Source of the DNA: a virus
Length of the DNA: 46,022 nucleotides
Reading direction: 5' to 3' (one strand)
Virus record (IMG/VR): IMGVR_UViG_3300045988_121014
Span: 1 to 46,022 of that record
The notes beneath the pieces were generated by a model that saw only the letters and a program-made list of their open reading frames with translations, was not told the origin of the DNA and did not search any database. Positions 7,645-37,842 of the stretch are shown one piece after another. Numbering within the stretch: the stretch's first letter is position 1; each line of letters opens with the position of its first letter. Position numbers and translations under genes: made by a program.

Positions 7645-8076
7645 ATGGTTAGCATAATAATAAATCCGGACATTTTGCGCCGGTTGATGGATCAACAGCA
7701 CTACACGAACGCTCGTCTGGCGGAGGAGACGAAGTTGTCCGAGGGCACGGTGAAGAGGTTGCTGAAGGGCTGCCCGACGACATACGTGACAGCATCGCTG
7801 CTGTCGATGACACTCGGTGTGACGGTTGACGAGTTGATCAGCGGCGAGACCGCAGCGAGCGACCAGGAGGAGACCGTCGAGATGACGGCGGAAGAAGCCT
7901 TGAAGATGTTGGAAAAATTGTATCTCGACCGCATTTCGGATTTGAAAGCGGTGATCGCCCGCATGAGCCGGGAGTTCCGAGTCGCGGTGACGATTGCTGT
8001 TGTACTGATGGCGTTCATATGTTTTCTTTTTGCGTTTGACGTCATAAACCCGAGCGTGGGATGGATAAAGAGGTGA
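7645..8076 (+). CDS. membrane-anchored XRE-family HTH protein
   Basis: HTH TNARLAEETKLSEGTVKRLLKG. C-terminal TM VAVTIAVVLMAFICFLFAF. GGAGGA SD before the ATG at 7645. Confidence 0.65.
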   Translation: MVSIIINPDILRRLMDQQHYTNARLAEETKLSEGTVKRLLKGCPTTYVTASLLSMTLGVTVDELISGETAASDQEETVEMTAEEALKMLEKLYLDRISDLKAVIARMSREFRVAVTIAVVLMAFICFLFAFDVINPSVGWIKR

Positions 8077-8080
8077 TAAG

Positions 8081-9115
8081 ATGATTATGGACAAGCTCCC
8101 GAGCGGTAGCTGGCGTGCAAGAGTGCTGATAGGAGAAAATAAGTACAAAACGTTTTCGGGCAAGGATAAGAAGGACGTGCAGCTCCGCGCGGCACAGTTC
8201 GAGGCGGAGAGGAAGATGGACAAGCCGGACGATCCGTATGCGGGCATGACGGTTGGAGAGGCTATGGAGCGGTACGTCGAGGCGAAGAAGAATACCCTGT
8301 CGCCGTCCTCGTACCGCGAATTTACACGCATCAGGTTAAGCAATCTTTCTGCGTTGCGAAATGTAAAGCTCGCCGATCTGACGCAGGAGCAGGTGCAGCT
8401 TGCCATAAGCGCGGAATCCGCCGACCACTCGCCGAAGACTGTCCGCTGTATGCACGGGCTGTTGTCCTCGACGTTGAAAATGTTCCGACCGGATATGACG
8501 CTGCATACGAAACTCCCACAGACGCAGAAGAGTGAGATCGTGATTCCGGAGGAGGTTGACGTCATGTCTCTGCTGGCGACTGTGCGGGGAAGTGATATCG
8601 ACGCCGCTGTTCACCTCGGCGCGCTGTGCGGGATGAGGATGTCGGAAATCCTCGGGCTGAGATGGTCTAAGGTGGATTTCGACGCGAAGACAATCCACAT
8701 CTGCGCGGCGAAGATCAGAGGGATGTACAACAAAGCTACTATGAAGCTTCCAAAGACCAGAGCCGGCGACCGGACAATCAGGATGCTGCCCGCCGTCGAG
8801 GCGGCGCTCAGACGCGCGTATCAGCCGGATGCGGAGTTTGTCACCACACTGTCGGAGCGTACCGTGCGGAAGCACTATCAGCACGCGCTTGAGCTGTGCT
8901 GTGGCAAGCACTATACTTTTCACGCTCTGCGCCACTATGCGGCGTCTGTGATGATCCTGCTGAATATCCCGGTGAAGTACATCGCCGACTATCTCGGGCA
9001 CGAAACTGAAGACATGGTGAACCGCATCTATGGGCATATTATGCGGGACAAGAAGGATGAAATATTCGCCCGGCTTGAAGAATACTATGATAACATTTTG
9101 CAAAATCCGTCATGA
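8081..9115 (+). CDS. int: tyrosine integrase (phage integrase family)
   Basis: C-terminal HALRHYAASV...LGHETEDMVNRIYGHI (R-H-R-Y catalytic signature), MRMSEILGLRW box. Adjacent attP-like region. Confidence 0.9.
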   Translation: MIMDKLPSGSWRARVLIGENKYKTFSGKDKKDVQLRAAQFEAERKMDKPDDPYAGMTVGEAMERYVEAKKNTLSPSSYREFTRIRLSNLSALRNVKLADLTQEQVQLAISAESADHSPKTVRCMHGLLSSTLKMFRPDMTLHTKLPQTQKSEIVIPEEVDVMSLLATVRGSDIDAAVHLGALCGMRMSEILGLRWSKVDFDAKTIHICAAKIRGMYNKATMKLPKTRAGDRTIRMLPAVEAALRRAYQPDAEFVTTLSERTVRKHYQHALELCCGKHYTFHALRHYAASVMILLNIPVKYIADYLGHETEDMVNRIYGHIMRDKKDEIFARLEEYYDNILQNPS

Positions 9116-31502: not shown

Positions 31503-33278
31503 TCAGAATACCCGTTTCTGCACAGAGACGATGCCCCAGTTTCCGGTGGCGAGGTCCATGAGCTGTGCGAGCGAATCGGGCGCGTCGTCGTGGACGTTCT
31601 TGCCGAGTGAGACGAAGGAGCAGAGCCATTCGATGAACGAACGGTACTCCGGCGTCGAGTGGTCGAAGTCGAGGAAGTGAATCTTCAGGATGTCCGGCGC
31701 GTACTGGATGATGCGCGAGAGCTTCGGCGCGTTTCCGGGAGCACGCCGCGTCGAGATGTTGAGAACGCACCCTTTCTCGCGGAGCATTTTGTCCACAGCC
31801 TGCGCGTATTCCGTACCGCCGTTGTTCGCCTCAAACTGCACCTGGTGTGGTCGGTGAATGAGCAGCTTTCCGACGACCGCGGGCTGCGTGAAGGTTTTGT
31901 TCGCATTCGAGAATACCACGTCGACGCAGTACATCGAGCCGTCGCCGTAGATGTAGACTATCGGCATCGCGAGGTAGTCGTCGCCGCCCCACGCGACGTC
32001 GCAGGCTGCGATTATCCTGTCCGGCTGACCGCCCGGGAGTATCCCGTTGTAACGGAGCAGGGAATCCGGCGGGAAGACAAGCCCCTGACGTATATACGGC
32101 GCCCCCTGATACTTCGCGCACCATGTGCAGTCGTCGATCGACGCTTTCATGTCGCGATAGTATTCGGTCGAGAACCCGACGCCGTAATCGTACTGGAAGT
32201 TCGATTCTCCGTTCGCGTCGAGCGCGGGAATGACGGTGAAGCGGTAATCCGGATTGTCGCGGTACTGCTCGCGCACACGCCCGAGCGGGTCCATGACGTT
32301 CCAGCGCGTACCGACCATCAGCTGTAGTGCGCCATCCTTCATACGGTCTTTCATCTGGTTCAGGTAGATGTTGTACTTCGCGTCGAGACGGGATGGAGAC
32401 AGCGATTCCTCGAGGTCTTTCACGAGGTCGTCGACATAGAGGATGCCGTCGCGCGAGATGTCGATAGCGCCCGTCCATGTACCTTCCGCCGACCGGCAGG
32501 TCATTGTCGGGAAGCGCTTCGGGTGGTTGAGGTTGATCTGGAGGTACTTCGCCGACCGGCTTTCGATCTGCGCGTGCGGGAACACGTCGTGCCAGAGGTA
32601 TTCGCCGTCCGGATCGAGCACCGCGTTCAGCTCACCGTAGAACCCGTTCACGAGTGTGTCGGAGTGCCCGCCCATTGCGGACGATTCGTCCGGATGACGT
32701 CCCATGTGCCAGGTCAGGAATAAGATGCAGAGAGTACTTTTGCCCGTCCTCGCTGGTAAGGACACCCCGAGAAACCTAATTTTGTGTTCTTCGAGGTCTT
32801 GAAGATCATTGCATATCCTGAGCAATATCTTCCGCCTCGGCAGCCAGAACTTTCTCGACGGCTCTCTGTTCCATTCGACGTACTGCATATAGTGGTCGAA
32901 TGAGTGCGGCGCGAGCAGAAGGCAGACTTTTCGTTTCAGCTCGTACCATTCCGGCGCGGCTGACGTCTTCGCGGCGGCTGACCTCGCGAGCATACGGTTC
33001 ACGACGTCGAAGAATTCTTTCCCTTTCGCCACCATGTAGGCAAGCTCCTCCTCGTATGATTCTGCCGAATTGTCCTGCGCGAGCCCCCTCAGCGCGTCGA
33101 AGTAGTCTTTCGCGACCGACAGACTGTCCGTTCCGTACGCCGCGACAGCCTCGCACAGCACGACGCACTCCGGCAGCCGGTCGTTCCAGTTCTCGAACCC
33201 GGGGAGAATCTTTTTGTTCCTATTCTTTACCTTTTTTGATTTCTTCTTTCCAGTATCTTCACATGAAAAAGCGCCCAT
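31503..33278 (-). CDS. terL: terminase large subunit
   Basis: LPARTGKSTL Walker-A-like ATPase motif, about 590 aa, upstream of the portal gene. AAAGGAGAG SD. Confidence 0.85.
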   Translation of the reverse strand: MGAFSCEDTGKKKSKKVKNRNKKILPGFENWNDRLPECVVLCEAVAAYGTDSLSVAKDYFDALRGLAQDNSAESYEEELAYMVAKGKEFFDVVNRMLARSAAAKTSAAPEWYELKRKVCLLLAPHSFDHYMQYVEWNREPSRKFWLPRRKILLRICNDLQDLEEHKIRFLGVSLPARTGKSTLCILFLTWHMGRHPDESSAMGGHSDTLVNGFYGELNAVLDPDGEYLWHDVFPHAQIESRSAKYLQINLNHPKRFPTMTCRSAEGTWTGAIDISRDGILYVDDLVKDLEESLSPSRLDAKYNIYLNQMKDRMKDGALQLMVGTRWNVMDPLGRVREQYRDNPDYRFTVIPALDANGESNFQYDYGVGFSTEYYRDMKASIDDCTWCAKYQGAPYIRQGLVFPPDSLLRYNGILPGGQPDRIIAACDVAWGGDDYLAMPIVYIYGDGSMYCVDVVFSNANKTFTQPAVVGKLLIHRPHQVQFEANNGGTEYAQAVDKMLREKGCVLNISTRRAPGNAPKLSRIIQYAPDILKIHFLDFDHSTPEYRSFIEWLCSFVSLGKNVHDDAPDSLAQLMDLATGNWGIVSVQKRVF

Positions 33279-33688: not shown

Positions 33689-34468
33689 TTATTTCAGTAT
33701 CGGCTCGTGCGCTCCGGGAACGTAGTCCTTCATGCTGCCGTACTTGTAGTACCCCTGGTACGTCTTCTTGTTCTCGTATATCGACTGAATCGAGCTGATA
33801 GAGAACTTCGAACCGCTGCGGTTCACCTTCCCGTCGCCGTTCAGCTTCGCGCAGATTCCCTGATATGTCGCGCCGAGATCGTCCTTCATGTGGAATACTT
33901 CACGCACAATCTCTGCCTCCGGCTCGTAGATTTCGAGCGCGTGATTCCTGACTTTGTACCCGTACGGAGCGCGCCCGCCGCTGTAGCCGCCGCTCGACGC
34001 CTTGACAGCACGTCCGGCTCCGGTCCGCTTGCTGATGTTGTCTCGTTCCATTGCCGCGCAGGTGAGCGTGAACGCCTTCAGCATCCCGGCGAACACGCCG
34101 AACTGCCCGAAGTCCTCGCAAATGCTGATAAGCTCAATCCCTTTGCGGAGAAGCGCCCCTTGATAGTAAAAGTAGATGTTGATGTCGCGTGCCACACGGT
34201 CTGACTTCGCCACGACGACCGCCTGTACCGGCGGATTGCTCACTTCACCGTATACGATCTCGTCGAATCCCGGACGGTACTTCGCGCCGCTCTCCCCCTC
34301 GTCTGAGTACCATTTCACGATGTTCATGTCATTCCTGCGGCAGTAGTCAATGATCTGCTCGCGCTGTGCCTCCAGCCCGAACTTATCCTCTCCGACCTGC
34401 CCGTCGGTGCTGACGCGGATGTACGCCACCACGTTTGTGATTTTCTCCTTGCTTACCTGATTCTCCAT
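33689..34468 (-). CDS. serine recombinase: resolvase catalytic domain plus recombinase domain, ending where large serine recombinases continue
   Basis: VVAYIRVSTDGQ catalytic Ser motif. PYGYKV...EAEIVREVF recombinase-domain motif. Ends ...GAHEPILK with no zinc-ribbon or coiled-coil region. Confidence 0.8.
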   Translation of the reverse strand: MENQVSKEKITNVVAYIRVSTDGQVGEDKFGLEAQREQIIDYCRRNDMNIVKWYSDEGESGAKYRPGFDEIVYGEVSNPPVQAVVVAKSDRVARDINIYFYYQGALLRKGIELISICEDFGQFGVFAGMLKAFTLTCAAMERDNISKRTGAGRAVKASSGGYSGGRAPYGYKVRNHALEIYEPEAEIVREVFHMKDDLGATYQGICAKLNGDGKVNRSGSKFSISSIQSIYENKKTYQGYYKYGSMKDYVPGAHEPILK

Positions 34469-34581
34469 TGCGGTTGATTCTCCATTCTCTGACCATGCCA
34501 CTGCGCCGGTCGCCTTTCTCGTCGGGGCTATGCTCCCCTTCACTGATTCTATTTCGGGGTGCTCCGCCCTTCGCTGATTCT

Positions 34582-34610
34582 ATTATACCACATTTACGGT
34601 TAATTGTCAA
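34582..34610 (-). promoter_or_regulatory. perfect TTGACA-N17-TATAAT promoter for the recombinase gene
   Basis: Reverse complement of 34582-34610 = TTGACAattaaccgtaaatgtggTATAAT. Confidence 0.75.
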
Positions 34611-34834
34611 GAGGGTTTGCGTATTTTTTCAGATTTTTTTGATTTTTCTTTGGTCGGGAGGGTCAACCGCGCCGCCTCCCCGACATATGCACCCCCCGGG
34701 GTATCCGCCGCCGCCCGGTCTGCGAGCCCGTCAGGACCGCGCGAAACCGCGAAAATCCGCCCCTGAAATACTGCACAAAAATATCATTTGAATTTATGCA
34801 ATGTGCTGATTTACTGAAAATCATGATTTTGCTA

Positions 34835-34863
34835 TTGACATTTACGGTTAATCGTGCTATAAT
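34835..34863 (+). promoter_or_regulatory. perfect TTGACA-N17-TATAAT promoter for the plus-strand island operon
   Basis: TTGACAtttacggttaatcgtgcTATAAT. The -10 is bracketed by the 10-bp inverted repeat TTTACGGTTA / TAACCGTAAA. Confidence 0.8.
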
Positions 34864-34915
34864 AGTAACCGTAAAGAGTAAACAGCAGCCCCGAGAGGGC
34901 AGAAAGGATCATACC

Positions 34916-35635
34916 ATGAAAACATACAATCTGAAAGCATACAGACTCGCCCACAGCGACGGCAGGGGCAATCACTCCACGCTTGTAGTAATTGCAGAGT
35001 CCGCGGAGCAGGCAGCCGCCTACTACACAGTAGAGCAGGGGGTCAACGTCATCACCTGTACCGAGACGAGCTGGCCGGAGCCCGAGCAGCCCCGCGGGCA
35101 CGTACCGTTGGACTGGGTCGCGCCGGCAGCAGAGCCGGAGACCGAGACCGAGACCGCCGAGAGGGCAGAAAAGGAGAACACCATGAAATATATCGACACC
35201 ACCAAAACACCGGCAGCAGAAATCGTGACCACCCAGAGAGCAGCAGAGATCGCCGACGCCCTGGACGGCATCCGCCGCGAACGTGCGGCATACGGCTACC
35301 GCGCAAAGCAGCGCGTCACCGCCCGCTGCATCCGCGAGGCGGAGAGCGTCGGACGTCCAACCGTCCGCGTCGGCTACTGCGACCTGCAAGACGCGCTGTC
35401 CGGGATCACGCCCGACTGCTACACAGCCGGCGTCTACGGCTGGAATTGCGACATCTATACTATCGCTGGATTAACCATCTGCACCGGCTACCGCCCCGCG
35501 GCGGGCGTCCGGGCTGTGGGCGTCCGTGAGCTTGCAGAGGCTTGCAGAGGCGCAGACACCGCGACCCGTGACCGGCTGTTTGCAGCCTGGATCGTCACCA
35601 ACCGCGAGAGAGCACGAGAGGGGGCGAGGGCATGA
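34916..35635 (+). CDS. island protein (239 aa) with an in-frame internal start at 35183 giving a nested 150-aa product
   Basis: The ATG at 34916 and the ATG at 35183 are each preceded by CCGAGAGGGCAGAAA(A)GGA. No stop codon lies between them. Confidence 0.6.
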   Translation: MKTYNLKAYRLAHSDGRGNHSTLVVIAESAEQAAAYYTVEQGVNVITCTETSWPEPEQPRGHVPLDWVAPAAEPETETETAERAEKENTMKYIDTTKTPAAEIVTTQRAAEIADALDGIRRERAAYGYRAKQRVTARCIREAESVGRPTVRVGYCDLQDALSGITPDCYTAGVYGWNCDIYTIAGLTICTGYRPAAGVRAVGVRELAEACRGADTATRDRLFAAWIVTNRERAREGARA

Positions 35636-35868
35636 TCGCATACCTGCCAACCTACGACGCCGGGCGCCGCGGCGCCGCTGAGATCGACTCGGCGGCATCG
35701 CGCCGACTGCCGCACGGCACCATCTTGCAGCATGGCACACTGTACCACTGCGACGGCGTGCTATATCGCACACACGATGCCGCTATGGCGTCCTGGGATC
35801 GCTGGGCGCGCGTAACGGACGCCCTGCGGATCACCGCAGACGCTTTTTACAGCATGGTGAGCAGATAA
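35632..35868 (+). CDS. hypothetical island protein (78 aa)
   Basis: ATGA overlap with the upstream stop codon. Confidence 0.55.
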   Translation: MIAYLPTYDAGRRGAAEIDSAASRRLPHGTILQHGTLYHCDGVLYRTHDAAMASWDRWARVTDALRITADAFYSMVSR

Positions 35869-35931
35869 CGCCCGCCACCGCATACAACCGCCGCCCCCGC
35901 CCGGCTAAGGCGGGGAGAAAGAGAGATTATC

Positions 35932-36138
35932 ATGGCAAACATCAGCATTAACAACAACCGTAGCTACTGCACCCCGGCGGAGGCTATCGCCGCGTTGGGG
36001 ATGGACGAGGTCGCGTCCTGGATGGATCCGGAGACCCGGGACGCGCTGTCTAACGAGTGGCAGGGCGCAGACGACGACTACACCGGTTTTTTGACGGAGT
36101 ATCTCCGCCGGGCGCCGTATGACCTTATTATCGGCTAA
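35932..36138 (+). CDS. small acidic hypothetical protein (68 aa)
   Basis: GGGGAGAAAGAGAG SD before ATG. Confidence 0.6.
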   Translation: MANISINNNRSYCTPAEAIAALGMDEVASWMDPETRDALSNEWQGADDDYTGFLTEYLRRAPYDLIIG

Positions 36139-36142
36139 CCCC

Positions 36143-36171
36143 TTGACAACCGCCCGCCGGCGTGCTATACT
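36143..36171 (+). promoter_or_regulatory. promoter TTGACA-N17-TATACT
   Basis: TTGACA at 36143-36148, 17-nt spacer, TATACT at 36166-36171. Confidence 0.7.
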
Positions 36172-36190
36172 GTAAGTGGGAGGTGATAGC

Positions 36191-36259
36191 GTGCTTGTAG
36201 TGCTGTACATCCTGATCGTGCCCGTGCTGATCCTGCTGGAACTCGCCCACCGTTCATAA
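36191..36259 (+). CDS. 22-aa hydrophobic peptide (M)LVVLYILIVPVLILLELAHRS
   Basis: GGGAGGTGA SD 4 nt before GTG. Promoter 20 nt upstream. Terminator 5 nt downstream. Confidence 0.55.
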   Translation: MLVVLYILIVPVLILLELAHRS

Positions 36260-36264
36260 CCCCC

Positions 36265-36290
36265 GACCGCCCCGCGTGGGCGGTCTTTTT
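36265..36290 (+). terminator. rho-independent terminator
   Basis: GACCGCCC-cgcgt-GGGCGGTC followed by TTTTT. Confidence 0.8.
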
Positions 36291-36339
36291 ATGCCCCTGT
36301 GGCCCGTCTGGACTGCCGAGGCTTTTTGTGTCCGCGCTG

Positions 36340-36788
36340 TGACGTCCCACAAGCCCGCAGAACGTCTTGAAAGCCTCGAGAGGGTATCTATATCACCAGC
36401 AGTGTAAACGCCCCGCGCAGAGCCTCACAGAGCCTCACAGCCCTATGCCCGCCGTCACCGCCTCGAGAGGGTGCGCAGCCGCCCGCGTGCCCGGCACGAT
36501 CCGCCGCCGATCCGCACGCCCTCGAGGCTGCATATCTCTGTGAGCGCCTACAAGCCCCGTGAGCGCGTTTAATCCCTCGATAGGGTTCTTATACCGCCGC
36601 GCCTATTTCCGCGCGTCCTGGGGCGTCTGCGCGCGCCTTGGGACGTCCTACGCAGTCACGCCGCCGTGATTATCCGCGCCGCCGCCCCACCGCCTGGGAC
36701 GTCCCGCCGCCGCGAGAGGGGCTGCCTGCCGCCTGGGTGCCGCTCAAAACCCGCTCAATTTCCCGCCGATTTCCGAAAAATTTCCGAT
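36340..36788. repeat. GC-rich repeat-dense non-coding region
   Basis: GCCTCGAGAGGGT x2, CCCTCGAGGCT, AGAGCCTCAC x2 in tandem, GTGAGCGC x2, GGGACGTCC(C) x3, CCTGGG x4. Only Arg/Pro-rich junk ORFs. Confidence 0.7.
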
Positions 36789-36838
36789 CCGGTTTTGAAA
36801 ATCTTTTCTGCGAGTTTCAAAAACCGGATTTTTATTTT
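36789..36838 (+). terminator. long hairpin plus T-rich tail
   Basis: CCGGTTTTGAAA (36789-36800) pairs with TTTCAAAAACCGG (36815-36827, one bulge), followed by ATTTTTATTTT. Confidence 0.55.
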
Positions 36839-36849
36839 CTCGGTTCGCA

Positions 36850-36923
36850 ATAGTCGCTGATAATTTTTCGCGATAGTCGCTCGATAGTCGCTGACCGTCC
36901 GATAGTCGCTGGCAATAGTCGCT
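36850..36923. repeat. five direct copies of ATAGTCGCT just downstream of terS
   Basis: Copies at 36850, 36873, 36884, 36902 and 36915. Confidence 0.85.
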
Positions 36924-37026
36924 CGAATGTCAGGGAACGTCAATCACGTTCGTCATATTGCACAATACTTTTAGTAATTTATCACTGGCAAGTCCATTTC
37001 GGCTGTCGAAAATCAAACCTTTTGCC

Positions 37027-37842
37027 TTACTTCACAGTCTTGTCTTCATAGTCGCTTTCCCTCATCCCTTGCAAATATCTTTCCTGTAGCTGCTTCGGCG
37101 TGAGGTTCGCTTCACCCATCGGATTTCGCGTAGTTTCGGGCAATTCTGCGTTATCCCGCATTCCGTAATAGCACTTCGCACGGAAGCAGTATGCCAAAAA
37201 ATTCATCTTCCCGGCGACCACAAGTTTCGCGTCAAAAGACTGTTGAAATTCTTTGGCTTTTTCGAGAATTTGCGAGGAGATGGGGGTGAACCCCCGCTCT
37301 TCCCCATGTATAATCGCATTGACTTTTTTCAGCCCATACCCCAAACTCAGGCACACTTCCTCCCATACGGGCGTGCGTCCCTCGTTCGCGCAGCGGTCGT
37401 AGTAGTCGCTGATTCTCTCCGCCATTTCGTCGTCGTCCTTCACGGTTGGCTTCCGGAACTCGGTCAGCAGTTCGCGGAGAATCTGGCTCACGAATGCGCG
37501 GTCGTCGTCGTTCTCCGGCGTCCAGACCTTGGTCGGGAGGTACTTGCCTTTGTCGCTCTTCCTGCGCAGTGCCGCGTCGGGCATGTCCTTTTCGGGGAGT
37601 GTCAGCGCGTTGATGATAGTCGCTTTGTCTTTCTCGTCGACACGCTCCGCCACGCTTTCTGCATACTCAACCGCCCGCTTCCTCGCGTAGTTGTTCGGCG
37701 CATGCCGCTCGATTTTCTCCTTCTTCGGCTTCGGCGGCGACTTCGGTCTGCCTCGTTTCTTCGGCGCAGGGCTGTCCGCTCCGGTCGCAGCCGCCTTGCC
37801 TTTCGCCGTGTTCTTCGCTCCGGCCTTCTTCTCTTCGTCCAT
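37027..37842 (-). CDS. terS: terminase small subunit-like protein (P22 gp3-like core) with a Lys-rich, AT-hook-like N-terminus
   Basis: ERISDYYDRCANEGRTPVWEEVCLSLGYGLKKVNAI...KAKEFQQSFDAKLVVAGKMNFLAYCFRAKCYYGMRD follows the gp3-type TerS pattern. N-terminal KKRGRPKSPPKPKK. Confidence 0.6.
   Translation of the reverse strand: MDEEKKAGAKNTAKGKAAATGADSPAPKKRGRPKSPPKPKKEKIERHAPNNYARKRAVEYAESVAERVDEKDKATIINALTLPEKDMPDAALRRKSDKGKYLPTKVWTPENDDDRAFVSQILRELLTEFRKPTVKDDDEMAERISDYYDRCANEGRTPVWEEVCLSLGYGLKKVNAIIHGEERGFTPISSQILEKAKEFQQSFDAKLVVAGKMNFLAYCFRAKCYYGMRDNAELPETTRNPMGEANLTPKQLQERYLQGMRESDYEDKTVK

Follow-up and report, generated by a model that had tools for sequence, protein, structure and literature searches.

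A 21–22-codon gene for a hydrophobic, probably membrane-bound peptide between conserved flanks in a group of temperate human-gut phages

Virus record IMGVR_UViG_3300045988_121014 (46,022 bp, from the human gut), the whole of which is referred to here as the window, carries at positions 36143–36290 a 148-bp unit made up of a promoter, a Shine-Dalgarno (SD) sequence, a very short open reading frame (ORF) and a terminator. The original prediction described this unit as a self-contained gene for a hydrophobic peptide resembling Ibs/Lpt/Fst-class type I toxins or small membrane modulators. The locus therefore raises two questions: is the ORF a real gene, and is its product a toxin held in check by an antisense RNA or something else? 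Comparison with related phages answers the first in favor of a real peptide gene. For the second, the answer that we favor, with moderate confidence, is an autonomously and probably constitutively expressed accessory effector that spans the membrane as a single helix, rather than the toxin of a classical type I pair under RNA control.

All elements of the predicted unit were found where they had been placed (Table 1). A second hairpin and U-run (T2), which had been overlooked, lies directly behind the first terminator (T1). The promoter is one of eight sites in the 46-kb genome that match the consensus at 11 or more of 12 positions, all of them TG-extended; by our estimate, about 0.6 such sites would be expected in random sequence, and the unit is more than a chance arrangement. 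Transcription is predicted to begin at about 36177–36179, giving a monocistronic transcript of about 113 nt with a leader of about 13 nt. The SD sequence is kept in all promoter-bearing relatives, and the peptide gene is the sole SD-preceded ORF in the window that has 18–30 codons and a grand average of hydropathy (GRAVY) above 2. Three different sequences occupy the T2 region among the relatives, each folding into a hairpin followed by a U-run. No U-run was found on the minus strand beside T1 or T2, so both terminators are one-way.

Table 1. Positions of the peptide unit and of other features of the window.
Feature	Position	Strand	Description
Sigma-70/SigA-type promoter	36143–36171	+	11/12 match, TG-extended; -35 TTGACA (36143–36148), 17-nt GC-rich spacer, TG (36163–36164), -10 TATACT (36166–36171)
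Shine-Dalgarno sequence	36178–36186	+	GGGAGGTGA; GGAGG-to-start spacing 7 nt
Peptide micro-gene	36191–36259	+	22 codons + TAA; GTG start 36191, TAA 36257–36259; product (M)LVVLYILIVPVLILLELAHRS
Intrinsic terminator T1	36265–36290	+	5 nt past stop; 8-bp stem (7 G-C pairs), 5-nt loop, T5; hairpin GACCGCCC-cgcgt-GGGCGGTC (36265–36285), T5 (36286–36290)
Tandem intrinsic terminator T2	36293–36327	+	Interrupted hairpin (36293–36322), then U5
Accessory cassette	34835–36138	+	Perfect promoter 34835–34863; ORFs 34916–35635, 35632–35868, 35932–36138
Large terminase (terL)	31503–33278		
terS	37027–37842		Convergent with the peptide unit
Tyrosine integrase	8081–9115		XRE-type repressors nearby
DUF927 helicase-primase	38198–40048		Replication module, which also has a CHC2 primase

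Relatives were gathered with the exact terminator, with the promoter, with a degenerate terminator pattern in metagenomes and species genomes, and also with the neighboring TerS protein, a form of sampling that is independent of the unit itself. The unit occurs in about 30 related contigs, nearly all of them 38–49 kb long and from human gut samples. TerS-based sampling gave 18 loci, two of which end before the position of the unit; the ORF is present in all 16 that reach it, as it is in 14 of 14 whole genomes examined. Its length in the relatives is 21 codons. At least 14 distinct nucleotide versions encode eight peptide versions, which fall under four patterns: MLVVLYILIVPVL(I/V)LLELAHRS, M(V/I)(L/I)LYALLLPILVLLDIARNS, MVLLYAL(L/F)LPVL(V/I)LVWIAQDS and MIIVY(A/V)LLLP(A/V)LILVWIARDS. 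Their consensus is M-(V/I/L)3-Y-A-L-L-L-P-x-L-x-L-x-(D/E/W)-I-A-x-x-S, with Y5, L7, P10, L12, L14, A18 and S21 invariant.

Frame conservation in homologous islands, a check that had been proposed with the original prediction, strongly favors coding. In the window's class, 10 synonymous substitutions stand against one conservative substitution (I to V; binomial P = 7e-5). L014 and L003, which represent two classes with nearly equal peptides, differ with a proportion of synonymous differences (pS) of 0.64 and a ratio of nonsynonymous to synonymous proportions (pN/pS) of 0.11. Variable alignment columns are distributed 13/5/18 over the three codon positions, the first-position changes being I/L/V swaps, and the start codon interchanges between GTG and ATG. 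Other frames, including the antisense frame, are interrupted by stops in several variants. These patterns indicate that frame 36191–36259 is clearly protein-coding, and they bear out its description as a self-contained, real peptide gene.

The promoter, in contrast to the ORF, is optional. Three lineages without it retain the ORF, each coupled to a different upstream gene: in L013/L024 an upstream TGA is followed after 2 nt by the GTG start, with a GAGGAGG site; in L035/L044 the stop and start overlap as ATGA; and in L047 a 12-nt spacer separates the ORF from the gene ahead of it, with a GGGGTG site. The SD variants of L013 and L047 lie at the same distance from the start as the SD sequence of the window. 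Retention of the ORF in these three lineages implies that the conserved entity is the peptide and not a small-RNA unit.

About 15 apolar residues, with the invariant proline at their center, make up most of the peptide, which ends in a short tail that is polar and not basic. GRAVY is 1.8–2.1 overall and 2.5–3.3 over the first 16 residues, and the net charge is 0 or -1. The N-terminus, M-(V/I/L)3-Y, is uncharged, with no basic stretch or signal sequence. Membrane-spanning positions vary only among I, L, V, A and F; radical changes are confined to positions 16, 19 and 20, and the C-terminal hexapeptides are ELAHRS, DIARNS, WIAQDS and WIARDS. The product is almost certainly a very hydrophobic membrane peptide. 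None of the eight versions matched a family in Pfam, NCBIfam or PHROGs, the sole Pfam/NCBIfam matches being noise (BSMAP, E = 9.3; YnaM/YnfT, E = 0.043 and 14 bits against a cut-off of 35). An exact look-up of the versions in a collection of 15 billion proteins found none present, a degenerate peptide search of viral contigs for more distant members returned only an already-known locus, and no analogous peptide was found in the terS-terL gaps of MT839459, MT839348 and Clostridium phage Maintenon. The gene is thus a previously uncalled micro-gene, and the peptide represents a new sequence family among phage small membrane peptides.

A type I toxin of the Fst/Ibs kind is the alternative that fares best, and we consider it unlikely. 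Here the peptide would damage or depolarize the membrane and be checked by an antisense RNA, either a dedicated antitoxin or read-through from terS; the pair would serve to stabilize the prophage or to kill the host at a given moment. Much of the anatomy is compatible with this idea: the peptide is tiny and highly hydrophobic, carries a proline in its middle and has polar residues at its C-terminus, the gene has its own promoter and terminator, and it sits in a prophage of a probable Bacillota host. Prophages of Bacillota are a classic home of type I toxins (PMC10730256; PMC7699646). Those toxins have a hydrophobic N-terminal part, measure 30–59 amino acids, and are paired with an antisense RNA that has its own promoter (PMC7699646, PMC10730256); a positively charged tail has been named as a characteristic (PMC7699646). 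An antisense transcript could arise from terS: neither T1 nor T2 stops minus-strand transcription, and no terminator for that strand was found on the way from terS to the ORF, so that late terS read-through would be antisense to the peptide gene. Such late-gene antisense would, however, be missing in lysogens, where the antitoxin is needed.

The search for a dedicated antisense promoter was negative. Sigma-70-type promoter prediction found no conserved minus-strand promoter within 600 nt downstream in 24 distinct related sequences; the only candidate is a 9/12 site beside the terS stop in some of them. A scan of the window itself likewise gave no antisense promoter. This confirms, and extends to the relatives, the earlier failure to find a convincing antisense promoter in the window. 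The tail is neutral or acidic rather than basic, and at 21–22 amino acids the peptide falls below the range of Gram-positive toxins listed in PMC10730256. The short leader likewise gives no sign of a fold selected to hide the ribosome-binding site: the whole transcript folds no more stably than shuffled controls (z = -0.8), and the unpaired probability of the SD sequence, 0.05–0.22, compares with 0.12–0.20 for shuffled ORFs, so that SD pairing is no stronger than in the controls. A lock between the 5' and 3' ends that would hide the SD sequence in classes 3, 4 and 6, with GGGAGGUGAUGA pairing with UCAUAACCCCC just before T1, was considered and rejected, as shuffled ORFs mask the G-rich SD sequence equally. 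Pfam and NCBIfam scans at E values up to 10 matched none of the toxin families (Fst, Ldr, Ibs, TisB, BsrG, TxpA and others), and three lineages have the ORF simply as the coupled last cistron of an operon.

Set beside Fst/Ldr, the bsrG/SR4, yonT/SR6 and txpA/RatA modules of B. subtilis prophage elements, the CD0977.1/RCd11-type modules of C. difficile phiCD630, and the Ibs peptides of E. coli (18–19 amino acids), the present unit is alike in encoding a tiny hydrophobic peptide that forms a single helix and is polar at its C-terminus, in having a promoter of its own together with a strong SD sequence and a terminator, in its prophage setting and in having been missed by annotation. It differs from them in lacking a conserved antisense promoter, a basic tail, a leader with a selected SD-masking fold and any sequence match to the families, in being shorter than known Gram-positive toxins, and in sometimes being a coupled last cistron. 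The proposed kinship with Ibs/Lpt/Fst-class toxins is not supported on these points, whereas the other likeness originally offered, to small membrane modulators, stands as a candidate. The peptide does not appear to be a classical type I toxin, and it may still be membrane-toxic when over-produced.

The window holds another small peptide unit, at 6126–6501, whose 27-amino-acid ORF starts at 6246 behind a long leader. There, CGTCGGGTGAGGG (about 6177) and CCCTCACCCGACG (about 6425) are complementary segments, a 5'-3' pairing over a long range such as type I toxin mRNAs show, in contrast to the unit at 36191.

The ORF is hypervariable between conserved flanks. Between peptide classes, the 48 nt from the -35 element to the start codon are 84–92% identical, and the 36 nt after the stop codon, containing T1, are 100% identical in classes 1–4 and 6, whereas the ORF itself is only 58–78% identical. 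The promoter-less c5/c7 lineage has a variant T1 in which one stem pair has changed from A-T to G-C; this compensatory change supports function of the hairpin. Core genes of the same genome pairs have pS values of 0.05–0.5 and pN/pS near 0.1. In G002, terS, located 770 nt away, is near-identical to that of the window (pS 0.07), whereas the peptide ORF has diverged to pS 0.50 and pN 0.33, a contrast that suggests allele replacement between the conserved flanks. Several peptide classes also co-occur within one metagenome data set. The ORF thus behaves as an exchangeable allele, a pattern that fits weak constraint on a transmembrane segment combined with recombination and fits selection for diversity as well.

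In another reading, the peptide, or its variable C-terminal hexapeptide, would be exposed or released as a type-specific signal or exclusion determinant between related phages, as in SHP/Rgg of streptococci or the arbitrium system of Bacillus phages. In addition to the divergence and co-occurrence described above, the clustering of radical changes in the last six residues speaks for this idea. The likeness extends to size (about 21–23 amino acids), to allelic classes among related elements, and to an acidic residue that marks the start of a short variable C-terminal segment. Unlike those systems, the phage carries no recognizable receptor: neither its gene list nor Pfam/PHROG scans contained an Rgg-, AimR- or TPR-type (RRNPP) gene. 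The peptide also lacks the basic N-terminus or signal peptide, its C-terminus is polar rather than hydrophobic, and it has no adjacent partner, the upstream genes being variable. Weak constraint alone would, moreover, predict fast change in a transmembrane segment of 20 codons.

We also looked for genes that vary together with the peptide class, comparing all genes of the window with ten relatives in full and searching five more for the repressor only. The window-type XRE repressor (7645–8076) was a candidate partner of class 1 and was rejected, the complete genome G013 having a class 1 peptide without this repressor. Other genes that separate the classes track overall relatedness. Among the genomes compared, no gene co-varies with peptide class beyond population structure, and no partner could be named. 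Overall, a released or exposed signal seems quite improbable. We assign similarly little weight to a broader idea in which the locus would be a slot for allelic specificity peptides: the flanks would serve as recombination joints that swap ancient, strongly diverged alleles among near-identical phages, the alleles would differ mainly in the exposed C-terminal hexapeptide, and the peptide would set the phage 'type' for kin recognition, exclusion or signaling at the membrane without a known receptor family.

If the ORF were incidental, the unit could function as RNA or DNA, either as a small RNA or as a promoter-terminator insulator that opposes and blocks transcription around the terS-proximal non-coding region. 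The better conservation of promoter and T1 relative to the ORF would then be expected, the monocistronic transcript is of a suitably small size, and the tandem terminators imply a need to stop strong plus-strand transcription. Against this, substitutions in the ORF are overwhelmingly synonymous or hydrophobic-conservative, its length and frame are kept, and it outlives the promoter in three lineages. The fold, too, is no more stable than in shuffled controls. Rfam gave no match at the gathering threshold over the whole window and none at E ≤ 1 over 35800–37100, and complementarity of the unit to the rest of the phage did not exceed 12 nt, which is chance level. We therefore judge an RNA or DNA function with an incidental ORF very unlikely. 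Least probable is a leader peptide or attenuator, in which a ribosome halted at the stop codon, 5 nt short of T1, would cover the left hairpin arm, as ribosome footprints allow, and so permit regulated read-through: there is no plus-strand gene downstream, T2 being followed by about 700 nt of non-coding repeats and then by the convergent terS; the peptide has no run of regulatory codons; and in Bacillota, RNA polymerase reportedly runs ahead of the ribosome in general.

We return, then, to a membrane effector that is expressed on its own account. In this proposal, 36191–36259, a genuine micro-gene of a temperate siphophage group of the human gut, would be translated in vivo. It would be transcribed by two routes: from its own near-consensus, host-type promoter, which has no recognizable operator and would probably be constitutively active, and as the last cistron of the cassette operon. 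The two tandem one-way terminators would stop transcription before it enters the repeat-rich non-coding region and meets the convergent terS. The peptide would enter the cytoplasmic membrane of its host as one helix, kinked at the proline. There it would bind, or mildly disturb, a membrane component belonging either to the host or to an incoming phage, for instance in superinfection exclusion or host takeover; the most plausible roles are the exclusion of other phages and action on a host membrane protein.

Several points weigh against this proposal. Given a strong promoter and SD sequence, so hydrophobic a peptide could well be toxic, a circumstance that fits a toxin at least as well as a benign modulator. 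In the monocistronic transcript the SD sequence sits right at the 5' end, and translation of this transcript may be limited as a result. The strength of the promoter is read from its consensus match only. Finally, the Pfam, NCBIfam, PHROG and 15-billion-protein searches gave no homologue of known function, and no partner emerged, the co-occurrence with a repressor type having been broken by G013.

Two further groups of known elements offer parallels. Phage morons are autonomous promoter-gene-terminator units expressed independently of the phage programme (PMC7067206, PMC6469090). The present unit resembles them as a compact promoter-gene-terminator arrangement that is encoded opposite to the neighboring phage genes and belongs to the accessory part of a temperate phage genome. 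It brings its own promoter and terminators, except that three lineages lack the promoter. Unlike morons, which are absent from some similar relatives, the peptide gene is present in every relative examined while the adjacent genes come and go. Small membrane-protein regulators such as AcrZ, MgrB, MgtS, KdpF, CydX, PmrR and SgrT are likewise single-helix micro-proteins, and Gram-positive examples have been reviewed (PMC10730256). The few invariant residues of the phage peptide (Y5, L7, P10, L12, L14 and A18) are in keeping with contact between its helix and that of a larger membrane protein. It is more hydrophobic and shorter than most regulators of the AcrZ/MgrB kind, and unlike them it is phage-borne and has no inferable partner.

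The genomic setting of the unit is an island between the two terminase genes, terS and terL lying 3.7 kb apart. The gap contains a truncated serine recombinase, the plus-strand cassette, the peptide unit and about 700 nt of repeat-rich non-coding DNA. Homology of the relatives to the window resumes exactly at 36139, four bases upstream of the -35 element, and continues through terS. Upstream of this point the cassette is a mosaic in which a dozen or so unrelated orphan genes, found in different phages, are joined at a few conserved segments; the peptide gene is invariably last. The stretch from the last cassette gene to the peptide promoter holds no terminator, and transcripts of the cassette are therefore expected to include the peptide ORF as well. 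The neighboring cassette genes could not be assigned to families, giving only sub-threshold similarity to AcrIC5 (E = 7e-4) and DUF3849 (E = 4e-4) and no plasmid match. In loci L002–L020 the conserved segments that form the joints lie at 34634–34929, at 35809–35939 and from 36139 onward. One joint falls within coding sequence, different genes sharing the end ...DALRITADAFYSM(A/V)(G/S)R, and this shared region contains a terminator-like hairpin (35824–35839).

Two sequence motifs were noted in the island. The first, TTTACGGTTA, has three exact copies, at 34593–34602 (+), 34841–34850 (+) and 34866–34875 (-), and none elsewhere in the genome; 1.2 matches with up to one mismatch would be expected. 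Two copies fall within the spacers of perfect divergent promoters (34610 on the minus strand and 34835 on the plus strand), and the third lies just past the -10 element of the plus-strand promoter. The motif is probably an operator for an island regulator. It is absent from the peptide promoter, the sole and indirect hint that this promoter may be under a control different from that of the two divergent promoters of the cassette; the missing operator-like motif is also suggestive of expression from a repressed prophage. The second motif, ATAGTCGCT, forms a repeat array just downstream of the terS stop (36850–36925); the window has five copies and L035 about nine (reverse complement, about 3290–3480). 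This array may be a terminase (pac) site or another protein-binding array, and the two terminators behind the peptide gene keep plus-strand transcription out of it.

The window is the complete genome of a temperate siphovirus-type phage. The 'direct terminal repeat' at the ends of the record is a mere 55-nt assembler overlap, which means that the assembly is circular, and the structural genes form a long minus-strand operon. By TerL, the closest named phage is Clostridium phage Maintenon, at 47% identity. In Maintenon, a cultured phage (L086, ON453900.1, 26723–31761), terS and terL are also split, with about 2.65 kb between them that holds small ORFs, two opposite-strand ORFs and two tRNA genes; the split pair may be an old trait of a lineage shared with Maintenon. 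The serine recombinase of the window (33689–34543) has its own perfect promoter and covers only positions 76–343 of a 651-position integrase profile, without the C-terminal part. The working integrase is more likely the tyrosine recombinase, which in several relatives is swapped for a different type (43–67% identity).

A search of species genomes for the unit gave a sole match, on a separate 46-kb contig (L018/L091, CAVIXF010000341.1, 46,276 bp) that is of whole-phage size, belongs to the phage group, and was binned in a metagenome-assembled genome (MAG) labeled Candidatus Gastranaerophilales. The other contigs of that MAG have 57–60% G+C, compared with 55–56% for the phage, so that the binning is compositionally plausible and no proof of host. 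Nothing was found in 40 relatives of this MAG. In metagenome contig OLZC01003662.1 (L046, 3341 bp), an open frame begins with a response-regulator receiver domain and continues into a cassette gene of the phage group, with the junction near ...KKQLSADLD...; this is either an assembly chimera or a real fusion and, if real, could give a clue to the host.

Phage annotation systematically overlooks tiny hydrophobic genes, and the gene described here is the single constant member of an accessory cassette that otherwise changes fast, in a common group of human-gut phages. With its 148 bp, the unit provides a clean, small test case for the action of a peptide in the host membrane, and it can address whether phages are able to carry a toxin-like peptide with no RNA antidote. 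Should the allelic pattern reflect specificity, it would point to a new means by which related phages distinguish one another.

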